From the NCBI GenBank assembly GCA_037189525.1, contig JBBCJC010000002.1, positions 1,280,001 through 1,344,000 of the forward strand: 64,000 nt of DNA. Reading direction: 5' to 3'. Under the pieces are notes generated by a model, which saw only the letters and a list, made by a program, of their open reading frames with translations, made no database searches and was not told the DNA's origin. Source of the stretch: Gemmatimonadales bacterium. GTDB taxonomy: Bacteria > Gemmatimonadota > Gemmatimonadetes > Gemmatimonadales > GWC2-71-9. Positions 54,941 through 63,225 of this stretch are shown here, one piece after another. Each line of letters opens with the position of its first letter. Position 1 is the first letter of the stretch. The translations under genes and the position numbers were made by a program.

Positions 54941-54984
54941 ACGAAACCCCACCGAGCATAACGTTCGGTGGGGTTTCGTTTTTT
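54941..54984. terminator. strong intrinsic terminator next to the att site
   Basis: ACGAAACCCCACCGA / TCGGTGGGGTTTCGT followed by a T-run; A-run on the left side. Confidence 0.8.
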
Positions 54985-54990
54985 GATCAG

Positions 54991-55032
54991 TCGGGGCGCC
55001 GGGATTTGAATCCGGGACCTCTTGCTCCCGAA
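54991..55032 (-). other. att site: 3' half of tRNA-Pro(CGG)
   Basis: Minus strand TTCGGGA-GCAAG-AGGTC-CCGGA-TTCAAAT-CCCGG-CGCCCCG-A; no D-arm or 5' acceptor strand upstream. Confidence 0.88.
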
Positions 55033-55395: not shown

Positions 55396-56064
55396 ATGGT
55401 AGTTGAATCCGCGGTGATACCTGGCCAGTACCCGGCCGAGCACGTTCGCCGGGTCGAGGTATGGGCTTCTGCATCGATTGATGGCGAAACACACGAGCGA
55501 ATGTCGCCCATGTTGGACGACGACGGCGAGGTATTTGCTCCAATCATGATCAATGTATTGGGCGGTACAGTCGACGGAGCCGCTACGGTACGGTCGCTGT
55601 CTGACGAGCACGGACGAACGGTTCACAGGGCGCACATACGGCTGTGGTTTGAACCGTCTGAGCCTCTCGACCTTGGTGACTCCTTCCTTTCGAAGCAGGC
55701 CGAGCGGTGGAACAATGTGACGAGCGAGCTGGATTCGGCCTTCGCTGACGCATCGTGGTCGGTCTCGGCGATCTTTGGCTTGGAAACCGCGGCAGAGCCA
55801 ACGGTTGTTGAGCTTCCGATCGCTCTCGACGCGCGAACAACAAAGAGCTTCTCGGAAATTAGGGGGCTGCGGCTTGTCCAGCTTACCAGCGATCGATCGT
55901 CTGAGCTGTACTCGGTAGTAGTCGACCAGCAACCGCGAGGACTGTCTCTTCAGGTCGCGTCGACCATGCGGTCGAACGTCAGCTCGGGGATCCTAGCCAA
56001 GGCCATGCGTGAGGGTTGGAGAATCGCGCGCTTTGCGGTGCCTAGCTTGCCGGAGGCGGAATGA
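55396..56064 (+). CDS. hypothetical protein, gene 1 of the HEPN triad
   Basis: 222 aa ORF, ATGA-coupled to the next gene. Confidence 0.7.
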   Translation: MVVESAVIPGQYPAEHVRRVEVWASASIDGETHERMSPMLDDDGEVFAPIMINVLGGTVDGAATVRSLSDEHGRTVHRAHIRLWFEPSEPLDLGDSFLSKQAERWNNVTSELDSAFADASWSVSAIFGLETAAEPTVVELPIALDARTTKSFSEIRGLRLVQLTSDRSSELYSVVVDQQPRGLSLQVASTMRSNVSSGILAKAMREGWRIARFAVPSLPEAE

Positions 56065-56654
56065 CTCACGTTATCGATAGTCGCGGCGTTTGGCACAGAC
56101 TCGACGAAATCGAGTTCCAACGGCCAGGGCGCCATGACTCGGTCGAACTCGTTCAGCAGAGTCGGCGATACCTGGAACGTCAGGCCCAAGCAGACATTCG
56201 GTCCGCGACTCAGGATTCTATGTCGTCCCTCTTTGTTGCTCTCATTCAGGGAGCGGCGAAGAAGGGGGCGTCCGCGGTTCGGGCCGACCTGCTCGCTGAG
56301 GAGCTCAAGGACGCGAAGGCAACCATTGATCGGTTACTGGCCTTCGTTCCAGGACGGATGCCAACGCCAGACGTCGAGCGCCTCCGGACCATTTCCAGCG
56401 AGCTCATGCAAGCGGCCAAAGACGCCTTCGGACCTTTGGGTTGTAAGCAGTACAACGTGGTTGCGCTGCCCGAGGCGGATGACGATTGCGAGGCGGCCGT
56501 CCGGATCGTTCTGGACGTTCAGCTGACGCCAGAAGCGGTCGCGCAGTTCGGGGAGCACGCCTTCGCCGTTCACCGACGCTTTGTTGAGCTTACGACACCG
56601 ACCGAACGTCGTGCGATTCACCTTTCCGTGGGCTCGATTTCCGACCCGCTATGA
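56061..56654 (+). CDS. hypothetical protein, gene 2 of the HEPN triad (possible antitoxin)
   Basis: 197 aa, GGAGG RBS, ATGA overlap at both ends. Confidence 0.7.
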   Translation: MTHVIDSRGVWHRLDEIEFQRPGRHDSVELVQQSRRYLERQAQADIRSATQDSMSSLFVALIQGAAKKGASAVRADLLAEELKDAKATIDRLLAFVPGRMPTPDVERLRTISSELMQAAKDAFGPLGCKQYNVVALPEADDDCEAAVRIVLDVQLTPEAVAQFGEHAFAVHRRFVELTTPTERRAIHLSVGSISDPL

Positions 56655-57061
56655 ACCCCGGTGAGAACCTCCCTCTCGCCAAGCTGCTTGCGAAGCCGTT
56701 GTCAGGCTGTTTGGACGAGGCGGCTTGGCGAGGAGCCGTAGGTCGTGCTTACTACGCCGCTTTTTGCGCCTCCAGAGATGCACTTGCCGCTGCGTCGATA
56801 GAGGTTCCGAGGACTAGAGATGCCCACGGGGATGTAGCGCAAAAGCTAGGGGAGTCGAGCGACTCGGTCGTTGCGGCTTGTGGCTCGATGCTTAATGACA
56901 TTCGACGCGACCGCCGAGCGGCGGACTACGACGTAGGCCGTCAGCTGCCGAAGCGTCATCACGAGTGGAGGACGATAGCTGCACTTTCCATAGGTAAGGC
57001 GGAACAGGTCGTCGAAGGACTGGCGAAGATTTCATCGGCCGAACTTAAGCGCAGCTTCTAG
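56651..57061 (+). CDS. HEPN domain protein (UPF0332/COG1895-like)
   Basis: RAYYAAF, central His (DAHGDV), RRAADYD. Confidence 0.85.
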   Translation: MNPGENLPLAKLLAKPLSGCLDEAAWRGAVGRAYYAAFCASRDALAAASIEVPRTRDAHGDVAQKLGESSDSVVAACGSMLNDIRRDRRAADYDVGRQLPKRHHEWRTIAALSIGKAEQVVEGLAKISSAELKRSF

Positions 57062-57105: not shown

Positions 57106-57448
57106 CTACACCTTCCGTGAGCACATGCTGGCCGCCGTCCTCAGTGGCCGGGACCGCCTCCGCCGCCTATACCCCTGCTGGACGAACTCGATCTCCCGCC
57201 CGATCTCGGCATCGGTGGGCCACCCCAAGTCCTCGCTCTTGTTCGAGTTCATGTCGAATGCTCCGAGTAGGCTGAGGCGCCAGGTGCCGTCATAGCCCTT
57301 AGTGGCAGGTCCAGCCGACGAGTCATGGTCGACCTCGGCCGCGGACCATGTCCTCGAGCTGGGCGACCGTCAGGCGCATCCGCCGGGCAGCTTCCGCCAG
57401 GGTGTAGTAGTTCGCGTCGGTGGGGAATTGGAACCGCCAGTTCGGCAT
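57106..57448 (-). pseudogene. frameshifted Xis/MerR-like HTH gene
   Basis: MPNWRFQFPTDANYYTLAEAARRMRLTVAQLEDMVRGRGRP* (57323-57448); the +1 frame continues ..PATKGYDGTWRLS.. to TAG at 57106. Confidence 0.5.
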
Positions 57449-57632
57449 TGGGCCAAGATAGCAGGCCCGGCATTCCTAGTGTCGCGATTCCTGAGAGCGC
57501 ATGGATGGCCGACCTACGGTTGGGCCCAGTACGCCCCTGAGCGTCCGTAGCCCGCGGATCGGCCAGCGGGCGAGCCCCCTTGTTCTTAACACCGGCTCCG
57601 GCCTCACGCTTATCAGACGTGCGGCCTCAGTC

Positions 57633-57872
57633 TCAATCGGGCACTTGCCCCCGTTGCGCTCGATAAGCAGCGACAAAGTCGGCTGCCAATTGGCTGGGCA
57701 GCCTGGTGCCTAGCCGATGCGTGAACTCCCAGACAAATTGGGAACCATCTGGGTTTGGAATACCAACCGACATGACGGCGGCCGTGCTCACCGTCATCAG
57801 GTTGGGATCCGGCCCGCGTTCACTGAGCTCCCACTGAATCGCGGCAACGACCTTCGCGAATTCCTCACTCAT
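57633..57872 (-). CDS. small hypothetical protein
   Basis: 79 aa, 4-bp overlap with the upstream gene. Confidence 0.6.
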   Translation of the reverse strand: MSEEFAKVVAAIQWELSERGPDPNLMTVSTAAVMSVGIPNPDGSQFVWEFTHRLGTRLPSQLAADFVAAYRAQRGQVPD

Positions 57873-58942
57873 TGTGTCGAGTTCTCCGTGTCGGTGTGAT
57901 CAGGACCGGGTTCGTTGGCGAAGCTATCGCCGTCAACGTCCTGTGGTACTTCACCACTGGTCCGACGTTGCCTCGGTTTCGAGGTTAGTCGATGCACAGC
58001 GGCCTTGAGTTCTCCATCGTCGCGAATCGCGAGGTCCATCCGCTCAACGAGGTCGACCAGGACAAGGCGGAAGTCGGTCGCATTGGCCAAGAATTCCTCG
58101 TCTGTGCCGTCGTGAAGATCCGCGCTAATTGCTTGGTGAAGGAGCTGCAGAGGACTGTGCCCATTGATGCGCAGGATCTCGGGAATCGCCGATTTTATCG
58201 AAGCGATGGCGTTGGCGAACTGCGTCTGACCCTTAGCCTCTGTTAGTTCGGCAACGAGGTCGTCGTGACCCGGAAGTACGGATGCGACCTTGATCATCCT
58301 GTCGAAGATTCTGTCCTTTTGCCGTTCGACGACCCGGCGGTAGTAGGCGGCCGCGCCCAGTCCGAATCCCTCCTGCTCCGCTCGATACCCAAGCAGGAAC
58401 AGCTTTCGATCCTTCTGGAGGAGTCGCTCCACTCTGGCGGGAGGCTTCTGACCGTACTGCGGCCACTCACCGATTTTCCAGATGCGAAGGGAGAGGTCTT
58501 CCTTTGCGGCGTCATGTGGCCGCGCATGTACCTCGAGCCGATTGCCTGACTGCGATTTCCAGGCGTGGTACTTGGGTGGCGGGGTGCATCCAAGAGCAAA
58601 CGTCTTATGGCTTTTGTTGCAGTTCTGGCATCGGTACGACGCGATACCGAACCATGGGAAATCCAATAGGCATTCTCCTACCGTTTGCCCGAGGTGAGAG
58701 ATAGGGCCAAACCATCGGACTCCATCACACTCAGGACAGTGCAGCTGAATGCGGGGAAGGGTAACAACAACGAGGGCTGCTCCCGAGGTGGCGGGCGACA
58801 CCGACGGGGCCACGGTCCACCTCAGCAGCGAGATTGCCGTGCCGGGTGGCATCCTCCCCAAGAGAATGGCGATGTCCATGTCTGTCGCCGGAGTACTTTC
58901 CGAGGTCAACGAAGGGTCGGGCCCTTGGCCTTCATTCGTCAT
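57869..58942 (-). CDS. Zn-ribbon + DUF4145/HEPN-like protein
   Basis: CPEC and CQNC pairs, GAAAYYRRVVE, LHQAISADLH; GGAG RBS before ATG 58942. Confidence 0.6.
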   Translation of the reverse strand: MTNEGQGPDPSLTSESTPATDMDIAILLGRMPPGTAISLLRWTVAPSVSPATSGAALVVVTLPRIQLHCPECDGVRWFGPISHLGQTVGECLLDFPWFGIASYRCQNCNKSHKTFALGCTPPPKYHAWKSQSGNRLEVHARPHDAAKEDLSLRIWKIGEWPQYGQKPPARVERLLQKDRKLFLLGYRAEQEGFGLGAAAYYRRVVERQKDRIFDRMIKVASVLPGHDDLVAELTEAKGQTQFANAIASIKSAIPEILRINGHSPLQLLHQAISADLHDGTDEEFLANATDFRLVLVDLVERMDLAIRDDGELKAAVHRLTSKPRQRRTSGEVPQDVDGDSFANEPGPDHTDTENSTQ

Positions 58943-59030
58943 TGTTGCTCTCCGCAAAAATGAGCAGTGTTGCGGTGTGCTGGGATGAACGGGCAGACTC
59001 AGCGCCGCCGATTGCGCGAATTTCGTCGAA

Positions 59031-59963
59031 CTAATCTCCGAGCTGCGCCTCGGTCGGGAGTGTCGCGCGAATGATTACGGTTAGCTCATCGCCAGCCTTG
59101 TCGAGGTTCGCAGGTTCCCAAATCACGGTCAGCTGGTGGCTGGTGTCGAAGTGGATATCGTTAAAAACGTCGCGACGGCATGTGTAGATGACTGGAAGCC
59201 CAACGCCTTCAGCGAAGCCTGCCTCCCAATAGGCGCCGCGATTTCCATGGGATAGATCAGCAATAAGGAACCGGCTCCGCCGGATCTCCACTCGTAGCCG
59301 GTCGTCGATCAGCCCGGCTTCGGGTTCGTCGTCGAGGCGGCGGAGATCAAAGCCGGCGCGCAAGACGGCAGGTTTGAAGGTGCTGTGGACAACGTTGTCC
59401 AGTTCCTCGTCTCCGAAGGGCATTGCCATGAAGGCGCGCTTACTAGATCTGAACGTTGAGTTCCGTAGTTGGCGGACGCTGTCCCAGCCCTTGAGCGTCA
59501 ATCCGACATCTCCCCCACTTCGTGGATACACCTTTCCATGGAGGAGCCCGCTATTGACTAACTCTCCAACGAGGTAACCGACACTCTCCGTTGTTGCACA
59601 CCCTACCAGGGCCTGGTGGGGAGGTGCATGAACAGTGATCCGATCTCCAACTGCCTCCGTGTGGTCGCTTACGAGGAAAAGGATGTTGGCTGCTTGCTCG
59701 TCAGGCGATGGAAGTGAGACGTTCTGGACAAGGCTCTCCCACAGGTGGGTCGTCAGCTTGGGTACTGTCCTGTTTTTAAGCCCGCAGAGGCGGCGGATCC
59801 CGTAGCTAAGGGCTGGGCTTCCCTTGGCGGTGCCCTTCATGAAGAGTGCAACCAGGGATCCTGTCATCTCGTAAGTACCGCACCTTGGGCACTCATAGCG
59901 CGTGACATGGCCGTTTGCCTCCGTCCGGCACTCAAGCGAACATACATGGCAGGACTCGTTCAC
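59031..59963 (-). CDS. Zn-ribbon/wHTH + nucleoside 2-deoxyribosyltransferase (TIR-like) domain protein
   Basis: CHVC..CPRCG, LTLKGW wing, AFMAMPF, IADLSHGNRGAYWEAGFA, IHFD; AAGGAG RBS. Confidence 0.8.
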   Translation of the reverse strand: MNESCHVCSLECRTEANGHVTRYECPRCGTYEMTGSLVALFMKGTAKGSPALSYGIRRLCGLKNRTVPKLTTHLWESLVQNVSLPSPDEQAANILFLVSDHTEAVGDRITVHAPPHQALVGCATTESVGYLVGELVNSGLLHGKVYPRSGGDVGLTLKGWDSVRQLRNSTFRSSKRAFMAMPFGDEELDNVVHSTFKPAVLRAGFDLRRLDDEPEAGLIDDRLRVEIRRSRFLIADLSHGNRGAYWEAGFAEGVGLPVIYTCRRDVFNDIHFDTSHQLTVIWEPANLDKAGDELTVIIRATLPTEAQLGD

Positions 59964-60087
59964 CGGTTTTAGCTCCTTGTTTGAGGCCCGCTCTGTTGAC
60001 TAATGAGGTCAATCTGTTCGCTATGAAGAGCTCGACCTTAACGCCCCCGGTGAGGAGGAGAGTGGAATCGCTCTACGGCTTCAGCTC

Positions 60088-60852
60088 TCAGCTTCTCTTG
60101 TCGCGCGCACCATCGATTCTGATCCAGTCATGAAACCGCCGTCCCAGATCGTTGATACGGACCATCTTGTTGGTCGATTTGGGATCTTGCGTTGAGGCAT
60201 CGAAGATCGTGATCAGGCCAAGGGCTTGGAGACGCAGCAGCCGAGCTCCGTAGAGTTCGTTTGGCGGGTACTTGAGTCGATCGAGGCTTGTCTCGGATCG
60301 ATAGCCCCAGAACATGTCTAGGCTGAGGGATCTCGGGAGGTCGCTTACGTTGGCTAAGGCCTCGATGTGCTCGTACTCGAGTTGGTCGAGAATTATGGCC
60401 ATCGTTCGGCCTTCATCCCGGTCGGCGGGTGCTTCGTGTCGAAGGCCATTTGCAAGGAGGGCGCCGAACGCCTCACGCTTCTTCTCGGCGCGGGCTCGCA
60501 AAGCCATGGGAAGCACCGTCAGAACGAGTTCACCCCAATCCGCTACATCCGGACGAGCCTCGGGCTCGATCGCCATCCGGTCGATGGCGTCGACGAGCCA
60601 CCAGAGGATGTGCTCTAGTCGCTCTCGGTAGCGCTGTTGACCGAACTCGCCTAACCATGGAGCAACCGCGTCGACGAGCAGCGTTAACCCAGTACTCGTC
60701 GGGGAAACCGCAGCAATGCTCGCGAGAACGCTGGCAATTCGTCCATCGCTCGTCCCTTCGAGCTCGACGAGTAGCTCGCGGATGCGTTCAGTCGGGGTTT
60801 CCGGGGGCAACCTGGCCGGGAACGGGCCATCGGGCGTACCGGGACTGCTCAC
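60088..60852 (-). CDS. Abi-alpha/DUF4393-like protein
   Basis: KREAFGALLAN, ILDQL, RLQALGLI, INDLGRRF winged-helix tail; 4-bp overlap with the repressor. Confidence 0.5.
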   Translation of the reverse strand: MSSPGTPDGPFPARLPPETPTERIRELLVELEGTSDGRIASVLASIAAVSPTSTGLTLLVDAVAPWLGEFGQQRYRERLEHILWWLVDAIDRMAIEPEARPDVADWGELVLTVLPMALRARAEKKREAFGALLANGLRHEAPADRDEGRTMAIILDQLEYEHIEALANVSDLPRSLSLDMFWGYRSETSLDRLKYPPNELYGARLLRLQALGLITIFDASTQDPKSTNKMVRINDLGRRFHDWIRIDGARDKRS

Positions 60853-61073
60853 CCCTTCTTCCCCTTCTTCGGTTCCCGCACGATCAGGTCGCCCGGCTCG
60901 ACGCCGAGGGCCGCGGCGAGTCGTTCGATTAGGTCGAGCTCGATTCGCTTTGCCCGGTTGTTCTCGAGGTCGCTAATCGTTGCTTGGCGGGTGCTCGCCT
61001 CGTCGGCTAGGCGGACCTGCGACCAGCCTTTGGCTTCACGTAGTTCCCGGAGGCGGAGGCGAATTGGTGACAT
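60849..61073 (-). CDS. Cro/CI-type (XRE) repressor
   Basis: LRELREAKGWSQVRLA..QATISDLE..LAAALGVEPGDL. Confidence 0.92.
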   Translation of the reverse strand: MSPIRLRLRELREAKGWSQVRLADEASTRQATISDLENNRAKRIELDLIERLAAALGVEPGDLIVREPKKGKKG

Positions 61074-61078
61074 ACTAC

Positions 61079-61126
61079 ATGATACGGGAAACGTATATTG
61101 ACGGCAATACGCTAGGCGTATAGCCT
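61079..61126. promoter_or_regulatory. divergent promoters with two ATACG-N5-CGTAT operators
   Basis: Operators at 61082-61096 and 61107-61121; rightward TTGACG-17-TAGCCT; leftward TTGCCG-17-TATCAT. Confidence 0.85.
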
Positions 61127-62122: not shown

Positions 62123-63205
62123 CTAACGTGGTATACTCGTTCGCTTCCGAGATTCGGCCTTCAGGATCGTATTTCGGGATCGCCTGCATGCCTCGCTGCA
62201 AAGGGTTGCTTGACCACGCTTAGGAGCACGACTTCTCGAGATGAAGCGGCCGCATTGGTCACAGGCCGCGGAACTTCCGATTCCCCCAACGATTTGAAGC
62301 AGGCCGTACCCGATTGCTGCCCAAGGACCTCCAGTGTAGGCAATACGAAGCTTCGTTGGCTTGTCTTTGGTCATCGCAAGGACAGGGTAGCAACGTCCAG
62401 CTTCCATCCACCAATTGACGAAGGGTACGAGAATTTCCGTTACTTGAAGGTGGCTGCGCAACTCTGTCATGCCGGAAGTCAGCAACTTCTCCATCGTCAG
62501 GTCCATCGCGTTGGTAGTTCGTGGCGAATCCTTTCCGAAGGCGATTGCCCGCCAACGATCGATGCCTGCCTCTCCAACGGATTCTGGTATTCCATCGACG
62601 TAGACCAGGTCCCTCTCCTTTGCGACCCATCGTCCCAAGAACCGCCCCCAATGAGCTTCCAAAGGCGCAAGGTCCTTGGCGATCGCCCGGCGGGCTTGCG
62701 TGCTCAGGGTTGTATGCTCGCGCAGGTACTCCGCTCCTCGAACGACGGCCCAAGCAAGAGCAGCATAGCGGTAGTACGCGGAGCATGGTTCCCCAGTAAT
62801 CTCAGTTATGGTGCCGTCCTTACCCTCCACTCCTTTGAGCTGTTGATGCTGAGCCCAGCCGGCCGGCCACTCGTTGTCGTCCAAACCCAAGTATCCGTAT
62901 CGGCTTACGAACGAGCGGATTGTCTCACTTTGGCCGCCGTGGATGCCGAGAAAGTCGCGAAGAATGTTCCTGGTTGTAACCGACTGGCTGCTCCTGTCGA
63001 TCAGCACACGCTGCAAGTCCTCAATCGACGGTGCGTCCGGATGTCCGGATGCATCGAAATTCATCGAACGATATCGAAGATGAACGCGCTGCTCCCTTTG
63101 TCGGAGCTCGGCTCCAATTGGGGGGCCGGCTGCCCCTCGTACGACAATGGAGGCTCCGATATCGATGCCCATGCATCGCTTCAGTATCTGCTTTCGTGTT
63201 GGCAT
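62123..63205 (-). CDS. CGNR-like zinc-finger protein
   Basis: IRSFVSRYGYLGL and C-terminal CDQCGRF..LCSEACR. Start uncertain. Confidence 0.65.
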   Translation of the reverse strand: MPTRKQILKRCMGIDIGASIVVRGAAGPPIGAELRQREQRVHLRYRSMNFDASGHPDAPSIEDLQRVLIDRSSQSVTTRNILRDFLGIHGGQSETIRSFVSRYGYLGLDDNEWPAGWAQHQQLKGVEGKDGTITEITGEPCSAYYRYAALAWAVVRGAEYLREHTTLSTQARRAIAKDLAPLEAHWGRFLGRWVAKERDLVYVDGIPESVGEAGIDRWRAIAFGKDSPRTTNAMDLTMEKLLTSGMTELRSHLQVTEILVPFVNWWMEAGRCYPVLAMTKDKPTKLRIAYTGGPWAAIGYGLLQIVGGIGSSAACDQCGRFISRSRAPKRGQATLCSEACRRSRNTILKAESRKRTSIPR

Positions 63206-63225
63206 GTCACGATTAGTCACGAATA
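63206..63225 (+). repeat. 10-bp tandem repeat GTCACGAWTA x2
   Basis: GTCACGATTA-GTCACGAATA in the divergent intergenic region. Confidence 0.55.

Follow-up and report, generated by a model that had tools for sequence, protein, structure and literature searches.

Defense-like genes without conserved linkage behind the repressor of a satellite-like element at tRNA-Pro(CGG) in a Gemmatimonadales bacterium

Do genes lined up behind a phage-type repressor form one anti-phage system, or are they unrelated genes that share a site? This question is raised by a run of five open reading frames (ORFs) at positions 57633 to 61073 of a 64,000-nucleotide stretch (hereafter the window; contig JBBCJC010000002.1, positions 1,280,001 to 1,344,000) from the genome of a Gemmatimonadales bacterium (assembly GCA_037189525.1). 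A reading of the bare letters, referred to below as the original prediction, had taken the run for a candidate new multi-gene anti-phage system expressed in the lysogen, with several independent single-gene systems as the fallback. The ORF calls bear out five co-oriented genes on the minus strand, namely, gene A (60849..61073), encoding an XRE/Cro-CI helix-turn-helix (HTH) repressor of 74 amino acids (aa); gene B (60088..60852, GTG start), encoding a helical, remotely Abi-alpha-like protein of 254 aa; gene C (59031..59963), encoding a 310-aa protein with a Zn ribbon, a winged helix (wHTH), and an NDT/TIR-fold domain; gene D (57869..58942, ATG start; an alternative TTG start at 58957 would yield 362 aa), encoding a 357-aa protein with a Zn-ribbon N-domain and a HEPN-like helical domain; and gene E (57633..57872), an orphan ORF of 79 aa. 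The stop codon of the XRE gene overlaps the GTG start of B by 4 bp, as does the end of D the beginning of E, and the B-C and C-D spacers measure the predicted 124 and 88 bp. A to D are real genes; E may not be. The run probably represents cargo in a variable slot of a satellite-like element integrated at a tRNA gene. Unrelated and likely independent abortive-infection genes would have accumulated there behind a likely autoregulated repressor, to be expressed from its transcript when the element is integrated.

Linkage of the cassette genes

Linkage was surveyed in 182 loci with C or D homologs. For C, these were the 80 top-ranking of 491 genome loci and all 5 viral loci; for D, they were the 80 top-ranking of at least 379 metagenome loci and all 17 viral loci. 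Each locus was scanned with the B, C, and D profiles and with the sequences of A and E. No other cassette gene (B, C or D, or E) was detected in any of the 80 cellular C loci or the 80 cellular D loci; these 160 loci contain a single generic XRE gene, 5.5 kb off, and a single second C-type domain. Flanks of at least 1 kb were present downstream in 72 of the 80 C loci and upstream in 44 of the 80 D loci. C and D occur together in 1 of the 22 viral loci (1 of 182 overall), 3.7 kb apart and on opposite strands. That locus (L186:27-16419) consists of a PICI-like element with genes labeled by eye as terminase, HNH, AAA_25, AlpA, and integrase, followed by a defense-like cluster with D, C, a PDC-S28 helicase, and a resolvase.

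The same separation is seen from the side of the other genes. Three loci with B, followed across 18 kb, contain neither C nor D, and one of them lies in a defense island with a DpdB-like gene; the cassette genes stand together in none of four annotated records; no E homolog adjoins a D homolog in any surveyed locus; and B, C, and D show no kinship when their profiles are compared. A conserved B-C-D-E order was not found. With C and D homologs occurring alone, the XRE gene belonging to the element backbone, and other genes standing behind its relatives (see below), the multi-gene system of the original prediction finds no support, and it is its fallback, several independent single-gene systems, that the lack of conserved linkage supports.

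The repressor gene and the variable slot

A sister element of 19.4 kb, found in a genome of the same genus (G005), occupies the same tRNA gene between exact 54-bp repeats and encodes an integrase that is 83% identical at the amino acid level to the one here. Its XRE gene is a broken remnant (84% nucleotide identity), and the similarity stops at the XRE stop codon. The far edge of the slot is marked by a segment common to both elements, located at 57202..57433 (minus strand) in the window and corresponding to a 235-bp segment of G005 (75% nucleotide identity). The 3.2 kb between the XRE stop and this segment hold different cargo in G005, where none of B to E is present; the slot is thus a variable locus in the 1- to 5-kb range of described hotspots, lying between conserved element sequences. 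The GC content at third codon positions (GC3) is 0.75 in the XRE and integrase genes versus 0.64 to 0.67 in B to E. Given this GC3 value, the contexts of the XRE homologs, and the sister comparison, the XRE gene belongs to the backbone and B to E are cargo. A small ORF at window positions 57202-57450 (minus strand) is frameshifted here, one DNA run showing the same letters, and intact (100 aa) in the sister. The G005 slot encodes a 308-aa protein (L202:14864-15790) that by eye resembles a wHTH-HEPN fusion with an Arg-x4-His motif and that has no match in Pfam or PADLOC.

XRE homologs (the one here matches Pfam HTH_3 with an E value of 5.5e-13) occur in 22 of 351 genomes, the genome studied here included, and 25 other places were found. 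At none of these does the first downstream ORF, the only one compared, match B, C, or D. In a set of 24 loci that omits the locus studied here, two duplicate copies, and the G005 remnant and includes two loci from a separate comparison, 9 have an ORF of 90 aa or more that begins no farther than 35 bp from the XRE stop. Coupled cargo was identified behind two XRE homologs (DUF2971 and HEPN). The genes behind XRE in genomes G310 and G025, which we take from labels given by eye to be AbiU2-like and nuclease-like, had no match in a plasmid search.

Upstream of the XRE gene lies a sigma-70-like promoter, TTGCCG-17-TATCAT (61079..61107, minus strand; 9 of 12 consensus positions), that ends 5 nucleotides before the ATG. 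It is framed by two operator-like palindromes, ATACG-N5-CGTAT, of which one (61107..61121) abuts the -35 box and the other (61082..61096) overlaps the -10 box. The exact palindrome has two copies in the 4.65-Mb genome, both of them here, against about 0.94 expected genome-wide. ATACG-N5/6-CGTAT with up to one mismatch is found within 100 bp upstream of 11 of the 24 XRE homologs; the corresponding figures are 0.1% for random genome windows and 1.6% for windows taken from the same loci. No Shine-Dalgarno sequence is seen upstream of the XRE gene, and its transcript may be leaderless and autoregulated, with operator binding predicted. The 4-bp overlap with B and the paired palindromes over the promoter agree with the predicted repressor-led order and with likely, still predicted, expression in the integrated state. 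A match of the XRE protein to the PADLOC model of CapH (E 9.6e-12), which would suggest a CBASS regulator, was dismissed as a generic HTH match with no cyclase.

The element at tRNA-Pro(CGG)

The original prediction had placed the run in a tRNA-Pro island, and a 53-bp copy (96% identity in blastn) of the 3' end of tRNA-Pro(CGG), located at 54980..55032 (minus strand), forms the distal boundary of the element. The other copy of this attachment (att) site lies beyond the window (G000:C2:1352643-1352695), as does the intact tRNA-Pro(CGG) gene (G000:C2:1352653-1352727), identified by ARAGORN on the genome; the program found no intact tRNA-Pro inside the window. The element between the att copies is 17.7 kb long; past 54 kb in the window, the GC content is lower (0.57-0.62, against about 0.66-0.68 before). 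The part of the element outside the window holds genes for a tyrosine integrase, an excisionase-type HTH protein, a small-terminase-like HTH protein, and an AAA_25 helicase. It also holds genes for a head-decoration-like protein (E 4.6e-8) and for a 963-aa protein that weakly matches tape-measure proteins (E 0.0017). In a PHROGs scan of 27 island ORFs, capsid, portal, and large terminase had no match. The att repeats, integrase, excisionase, replication gene, and incomplete virion module are those of PICI-like satellites, and by its gene content the element reads as satellite-like and not as a full prophage. Of 301 genomes in the order, 31 encode related integrases. Two DNA runs were compared with the element; the one that has it includes a contig identical to the window, is possibly the source of the window, and shows neither an excision nor a deletion joint. 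The integrase frame (L001:17271-18734) extends across the att site and, in antisense, across the tRNA-Pro gene, as it does in G005, so that the C-terminus of the integrase would change upon excision.

The long tape-measure-like helical protein of this element (L001:9421-14234, corresponding to G000:C2:1343421-1348234) has counterparts of its type in four related tRNA-integrated elements from the same taxonomic order, with lengths of up to 1417 aa (L202:6532-10785), 1072 aa (L217:7459-10677), 1010 aa (L218:10034-13066), and 492 aa (L209:9694-11172). These four are mutually homologous (E 1e-14 to 1e-55); kinship of the protein encoded here is undetectable. No capsid gene was noticed in these tape-measure-bearing elements, which may represent an undescribed satellite family, possibly more novel than the cassette itself.

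Two further parts of the island lie outside the cassette. A convergent three-gene run at 55396-57061 (plus strand), with 4-bp overlaps and products of 222, 197, and 136 aa, ends in a HEPN-like gene (Pfam E 0.043; phrog_5176 E 4e-9) and is possibly another toxin-antitoxin or defense module. Upstream of the XRE gene, an orphan of 361 aa with cysteines clustered at its C-terminus (62123-63208, minus strand) has the lowest GC3 in the island (0.60) and no family match in the Pfam and PHROGs scans.

Gene C, a Zn-ribbon protein with an NDT/TIR fold

The predicted model of C (predicted local distance difference test [pLDDT] score of 92) consists of a Cys4 Zn ribbon (residues 1-35), a winged helix (86-174), and an NDT/TIR-fold domain (172-305). 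This last domain has the flavodoxin-like fold of NDT and TIR proteins, as had been predicted for C: it matches NDT (7o62) with a Z score of 13.8 (root mean square deviation, 2.7; 121 aligned residues) and TIR domains with Z scores of 12-13 (12.5 for the SARM1 TIR); the winged helix matches MarR with a Z score of 10. A Foldseek search of the PDB gave no match for C or D at an E value of 0.001 or better. Sequence searches of the PDB with the B, C, and D alignments yielded nothing significant, nor did a Zn/DUF4145 protein have a sequence match there. D220, E247, H271, D273, and H276 are invariant in the 116-row alignment of C, and E247 may be the equivalent of the NDT/TIR catalytic glutamate, judging from its position in the motif and not from residue-level superposition. 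On the basis of the model, C is predicted to be an N-glycosidase/NADase effector. The PADLOC TIR effector model matches C weakly (E 1e-3) and 7 of 12 homologs, the best with an E value of 2e-13. DUF4062 has no Pfam match in C at an E value of 0.1, and a profile comparison with one DUF4062 protein gave 0.1%. A 92% global profile match between C and Zn/DUF4145 proteins was discarded, as shuffled controls that kept the Zn ribbon reached up to 80%.

C has 2,340 homologs and no match among the 50,697 phage records of INPHARED. In the neighborhood check that had been proposed, defense genes were commoner next to its homologs than at a distance. Of 151 genes called beside C homologs, 113 were scanned, excluding very short ORFs and multiple copies of one Phycisphaerae locus; among them were 13 defense genes (HsdS, twice; EcoO109I; DUF4365; an MTES helicase; a reverse transcriptase; Schlafen; TIR; DUF4062, twice; SNF2/NOV; KAP; and DUF499) and 8 toxin-antitoxin genes. 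Among 87 control genes at least 4.5 kb off in the same loci, 1 was a defense gene (Cas9; 2 with a WYL regulator) and 2 were toxin-antitoxin genes. The Fisher P value is 0.004 for defense genes, 0.015 with the WYL regulator, and 0.0009 for both classes together. One C homolog sits between SEFIR and methyltransferase genes. The element ORFs scanned include no reverse transcriptase or CD-NTase that could be a partner of C (noncoding RNA was not searched), and a reverse transcriptase adjoins C homologs in 1 of the 113 neighbors. In Phycisphaerae and Planctomycetota, several C homologs directly follow etfB (L020, L027, L046, L047, L053, L057, L059, L061, and L077), most of them inside an etfB-etfA-acyl-CoA dehydrogenase operon.

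Gene D, a Zn-ribbon protein with a possibly HEPN-like bundle

In the predicted model of D (pLDDT, 81), an N-domain with beta structure and a Cys4 Zn ribbon precedes a helical domain (163-320). The ribbon cysteines C69, C72, C105, and C108 are conserved, giving a Cys4 ribbon of the RAZR type; nine Zn/DUF4145 proteins match it locally over their own ribbons (91%), which reflects a generic motif. The helical domain carries the motifs YYRRVVE and H269-x3-S273-x3-H277; of the 47 homologs found in a word search, 40 have His, 5 have Tyr, and 1 has Asn at position 269, and 45 have His277. The DUF4145 likeness claimed for D found no sequence match (no Pfam hit in D, nothing in its own genome with the PF13643 profile, and 0.4% in hhalign of the helical half to a Zn-ribbon/DUF4145 profile), and an Atlas value of 0.89 toward DUF4145 is a lead only. 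What is left is a middling HEPN-like fold: the bundle matches the HEPN protein AF0298 (2hsb) with a Z score of 7.7 (root mean square deviation, 3.5; 115 aligned residues), tied by rhodopsins, and the fold list also includes RnlA (Z score, 7.0), LsoA, Csm6, SO_3166, and a designed bundle that ties too. From this model, D is predicted to be an RNase effector.

D matches phrog_25239 (E 7e-41), and a viral structure library contains one unnamed match. The PADLOC model of PD-T7-4 matches neither D nor 10 of its homologs. Viral loci with D homologs number 17, and in several of them the homolog is a solo antisense gene; in a temperate Autographiviridae Rhizobium phage induced from a lysogen (L167, MW023914.1; L176), such a solo antisense gene adjoins the major capsid gene. 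Neighbors of D homologs at positions 1 and 2 (n = 140, with no control set) include Mrr (twice), DUF4062, DUF4145, Swt1-HEPN, SIR2, an N6-methylase, and an OLD-type ATPase. The predicted presence of defense-like domains in the cassette is supported.

Genes B and E

The predicted Abi-alpha likeness of B stood as a weak remote resemblance, while the family threshold was missed, B itself having no Pfam match. B has 25 homologs and no plasmid match; its Atlas score to a cluster in which PF14337 makes up 25% is 0.92 (200 shared features). For E, a DUF7423 match (E 0.0017) lies under the cut-off, and only chance-level matches were found as homologs in 301 genomes.

Weighing the explanations

A number of points weigh against a slot of independent abortive-infection genes or limit the case for it. 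The slot comparison rests on one sister at the same att site, whose XRE gene is broken; all surveyed homologs are 44-47% identical or less, a level at which young local linkage would be missed; and the promoter scan gave 2 sites versus 1.0 by chance, which alone is near chance. The neighbor classes behind the defense enrichment were assigned by eye to genes that we called ourselves, in loci that cannot count as independent; most neighbors of C are housekeeping or unknown genes, and most C homologs stand alone among housekeeping genes. The bundle of D ties with rhodopsins and lacks the HEPN catalytic Arg, with His in its place. Pfam Abi_alpha matches 3 of the 26 aligned members of the B family (best E 1.1e-4) and not B. 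As for PADLOC, which had been proposed as a check, no model claims B or D, and C is matched weakly.

The alternative that survives best, still an unlikely one, keeps the independent defense or conflict genes and lets the XRE promoter drive B only, with C and D transcribed from promoters of their own and the run a mere neighborhood. C and D indeed have their own ribosome sites behind spacers of some length, and their homologs usually stand alone, so they must bring promoters. The B-C gap (59964-60087, minus strand) contains a TTGAC-N7-GTCAA inverted repeat upstream of the ribosome site of C, which may be an internal promoter or operator. Against this, neither the B-C nor the C-D gap contains a sigma-70-like or terminator-like site, in a scan that is insensitive in a host of 65% GC.

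It is improbable that C, and perhaps D, are not anti-phage genes at all and instead hitchhike as selfish or stress toxins or nucleotide-sanitizing enzymes that aid maintenance of the element. The top fold matches of C are salvage and sanitizing enzymes (NDT, DNPH1, and MilB), many of its homologs sit in housekeeping operons with toxin-antitoxin genes among the neighbors, and the lack of phage matches for C and of the HEPN Arg in D fits such a role. However, a Zn ribbon and wHTH joined to a glycosidase fold form a sensor-effector layout, the weak matches to a defense TIR effector model recur among homologs, defense genes are enriched next to C, and D homologs reside in viral loci, several as solo antisense genes. 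That the four genes form one cooperating multi-gene system under XRE control, as co-orientation, the two 4-bp overlaps, short gaps with no terminator-like site, and the similar GC3 of B to E might suggest, is very improbable in view of the single, nonadjacent co-occurrence of C and D, the other genes that follow XRE homologs, the sister element without all four, and the lack of an E homolog beside any D homolog.

If the preferred reading, an autoregulated repressor with stacked independent cargo, is adopted, the slot might work as follows. XRE dimers would bind both palindromes and keep a leaderless transcript low and constant in amount. The purine-rich 3' end of the XRE gene would supply the ribosome site for the next captured gene, here B, with C and D using their own sites. 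Upon infection, the Zn-ribbon/wHTH part of C could sense a phage product or DNA, and its NDT/TIR domain would, via E247, cleave NAD+ or nucleotides; the HEPN-like domain of D would dimerize and cut RNA in the manner of RAZR, with a His-Ser-His site; and B would speed lysis, as Abi-alpha does. In this scheme, where the activities of C, D, and B (NAD+ or nucleotide cleavage, RNA cutting, and lysis timing) are drawn by analogy, each cargo protein would guard the host and the element from non-helper phages.

Relation to known systems

A repressor-linked defense hotspot is a known kind of arrangement (PMC9122126 and PMC3564112). Exclusion genes cotranscribed with repressors include rexAB and hex (PMC3564112). 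As in lambda cI-rexAB, 434 cI-hex, and the 933W kinase, the accessory genes immediately follow and overlap the repressor gene, an order by which they would be produced in the integrated state; the shared trait is cargo directly behind an autoregulated repressor, operator binding being predicted for the case studied here. In contrast to rexAB and hex, no capsid, portal, or large terminase gene was detected here, the cargo is unrelated to Rex and Hex and exchanged among relatives, and cotranscription is predicted. The antiviral hotspots of P2 phages, P4 satellites, and K139-like prophages (Rousset 2022, PMC9122126), one of which adjoins cI, are likewise variable loci of 1 to 5 kb with several unrelated defense-like genes. 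Unlike these, the element described here has a tyrosine integrase acting at tRNAs, an AAA_25 helicase, and a tape-measure-like gene, and its anchor is a small XRE gene with conserved palindromes. EPIPs, tape-measure-bearing satellites (PMC12822802), are also small integrative elements with an incomplete virion set; the present element, known from its genes alone, differs in having a tyrosine and not a serine integrase and a head-decoration-like gene.

Among single-gene systems, D is closest by description to RAZR/PD-T7-4 (PMC13017515), which has an N-terminal Cys4 ribbon, as D does, and a C-terminal HEPN-like helical domain, a fold that D may share. The spacing of R146 and H154 in RAZR equals that of H269 and H277 in D (His 8 residues after another conserved residue). 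However, His269 of D stands at the position of Arg146, the proteins of the D family have about 290-357 aa versus 25 kDa for RAZR, and the RAZR structure is absent from the fold matches of D. DUF4145 domains fused to Zn ribbons have been described, as has a family that has the His but not the Arg (PMC3710099). C shares the NDT/TIR fold, a conserved Glu, and an accessory domain with Swarozyc, a DUF4062 TIR-like NADase (bioRxiv 10.64898/2026.05.01.722283), and with the NDT-wHTH effector of retron Ec86 (10.1101/2023.08.16.553469), and by analogy it likely would act in their mode, namely, abortive defense by cleavage of nucleotides or NAD+. C differs in having no DUF4062 similarity and in its enzyme domain, which comes last, behind the Zn ribbon and wHTH; neither a reverse transcriptase nor a cyclase partner was found in the element ORFs scanned. 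B resembles Abi-alpha (DUF4393/PF14337), which triggers premature lysis (PMC6356687), in size (254 versus 272 aa), prophage-type setting, and remote profile and language-model likeness, whereas B itself has no Pfam match and only 3 of 26 family members match at an E value of 0.01 or better. No paper describing the C or D family was found in the literature searched, the available passages of PMC13092281 and PMC13069673 included; supplements may list them.

Implications for putative satellite-borne defense

Removal of the would-be multi-gene system leaves two single-gene defense candidates, C (E247) and D (H269/H277), neither of which is claimed by the copies of Pfam, NCBIfam, and PADLOC that were scanned. 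The small XRE gene with its conserved palindrome pair offers an anchor by which further cargo could be sought in a little-studied group of bacteria. A more far-reaching reading, advanced tentatively and at somewhat less than even chance, is that C represents an undescribed, widespread stand-alone anti-phage family in which a Zn ribbon-wHTH sensor is joined to an NDT/TIR-type glycosidase of NAD+ or nucleotides, that D is an undescribed RAZR-like RNase with a His-Ser-His site where RAZR has Arg-His, and that, in an undescribed family of tape-measure-bearing satellites, defense genes in general dock at the 3' end of the XRE gene. Should D prove active with a His where HEPN enzymes have the Arg, the known range of HEPN chemistry would be widened. 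If C defends, more than 2,000 clusters currently labeled as hypothetical or nucleoside deoxyribosyltransferase would be reassigned. And if the 3' end of the XRE gene is indeed a docking slot, it could be mined for further defense systems.

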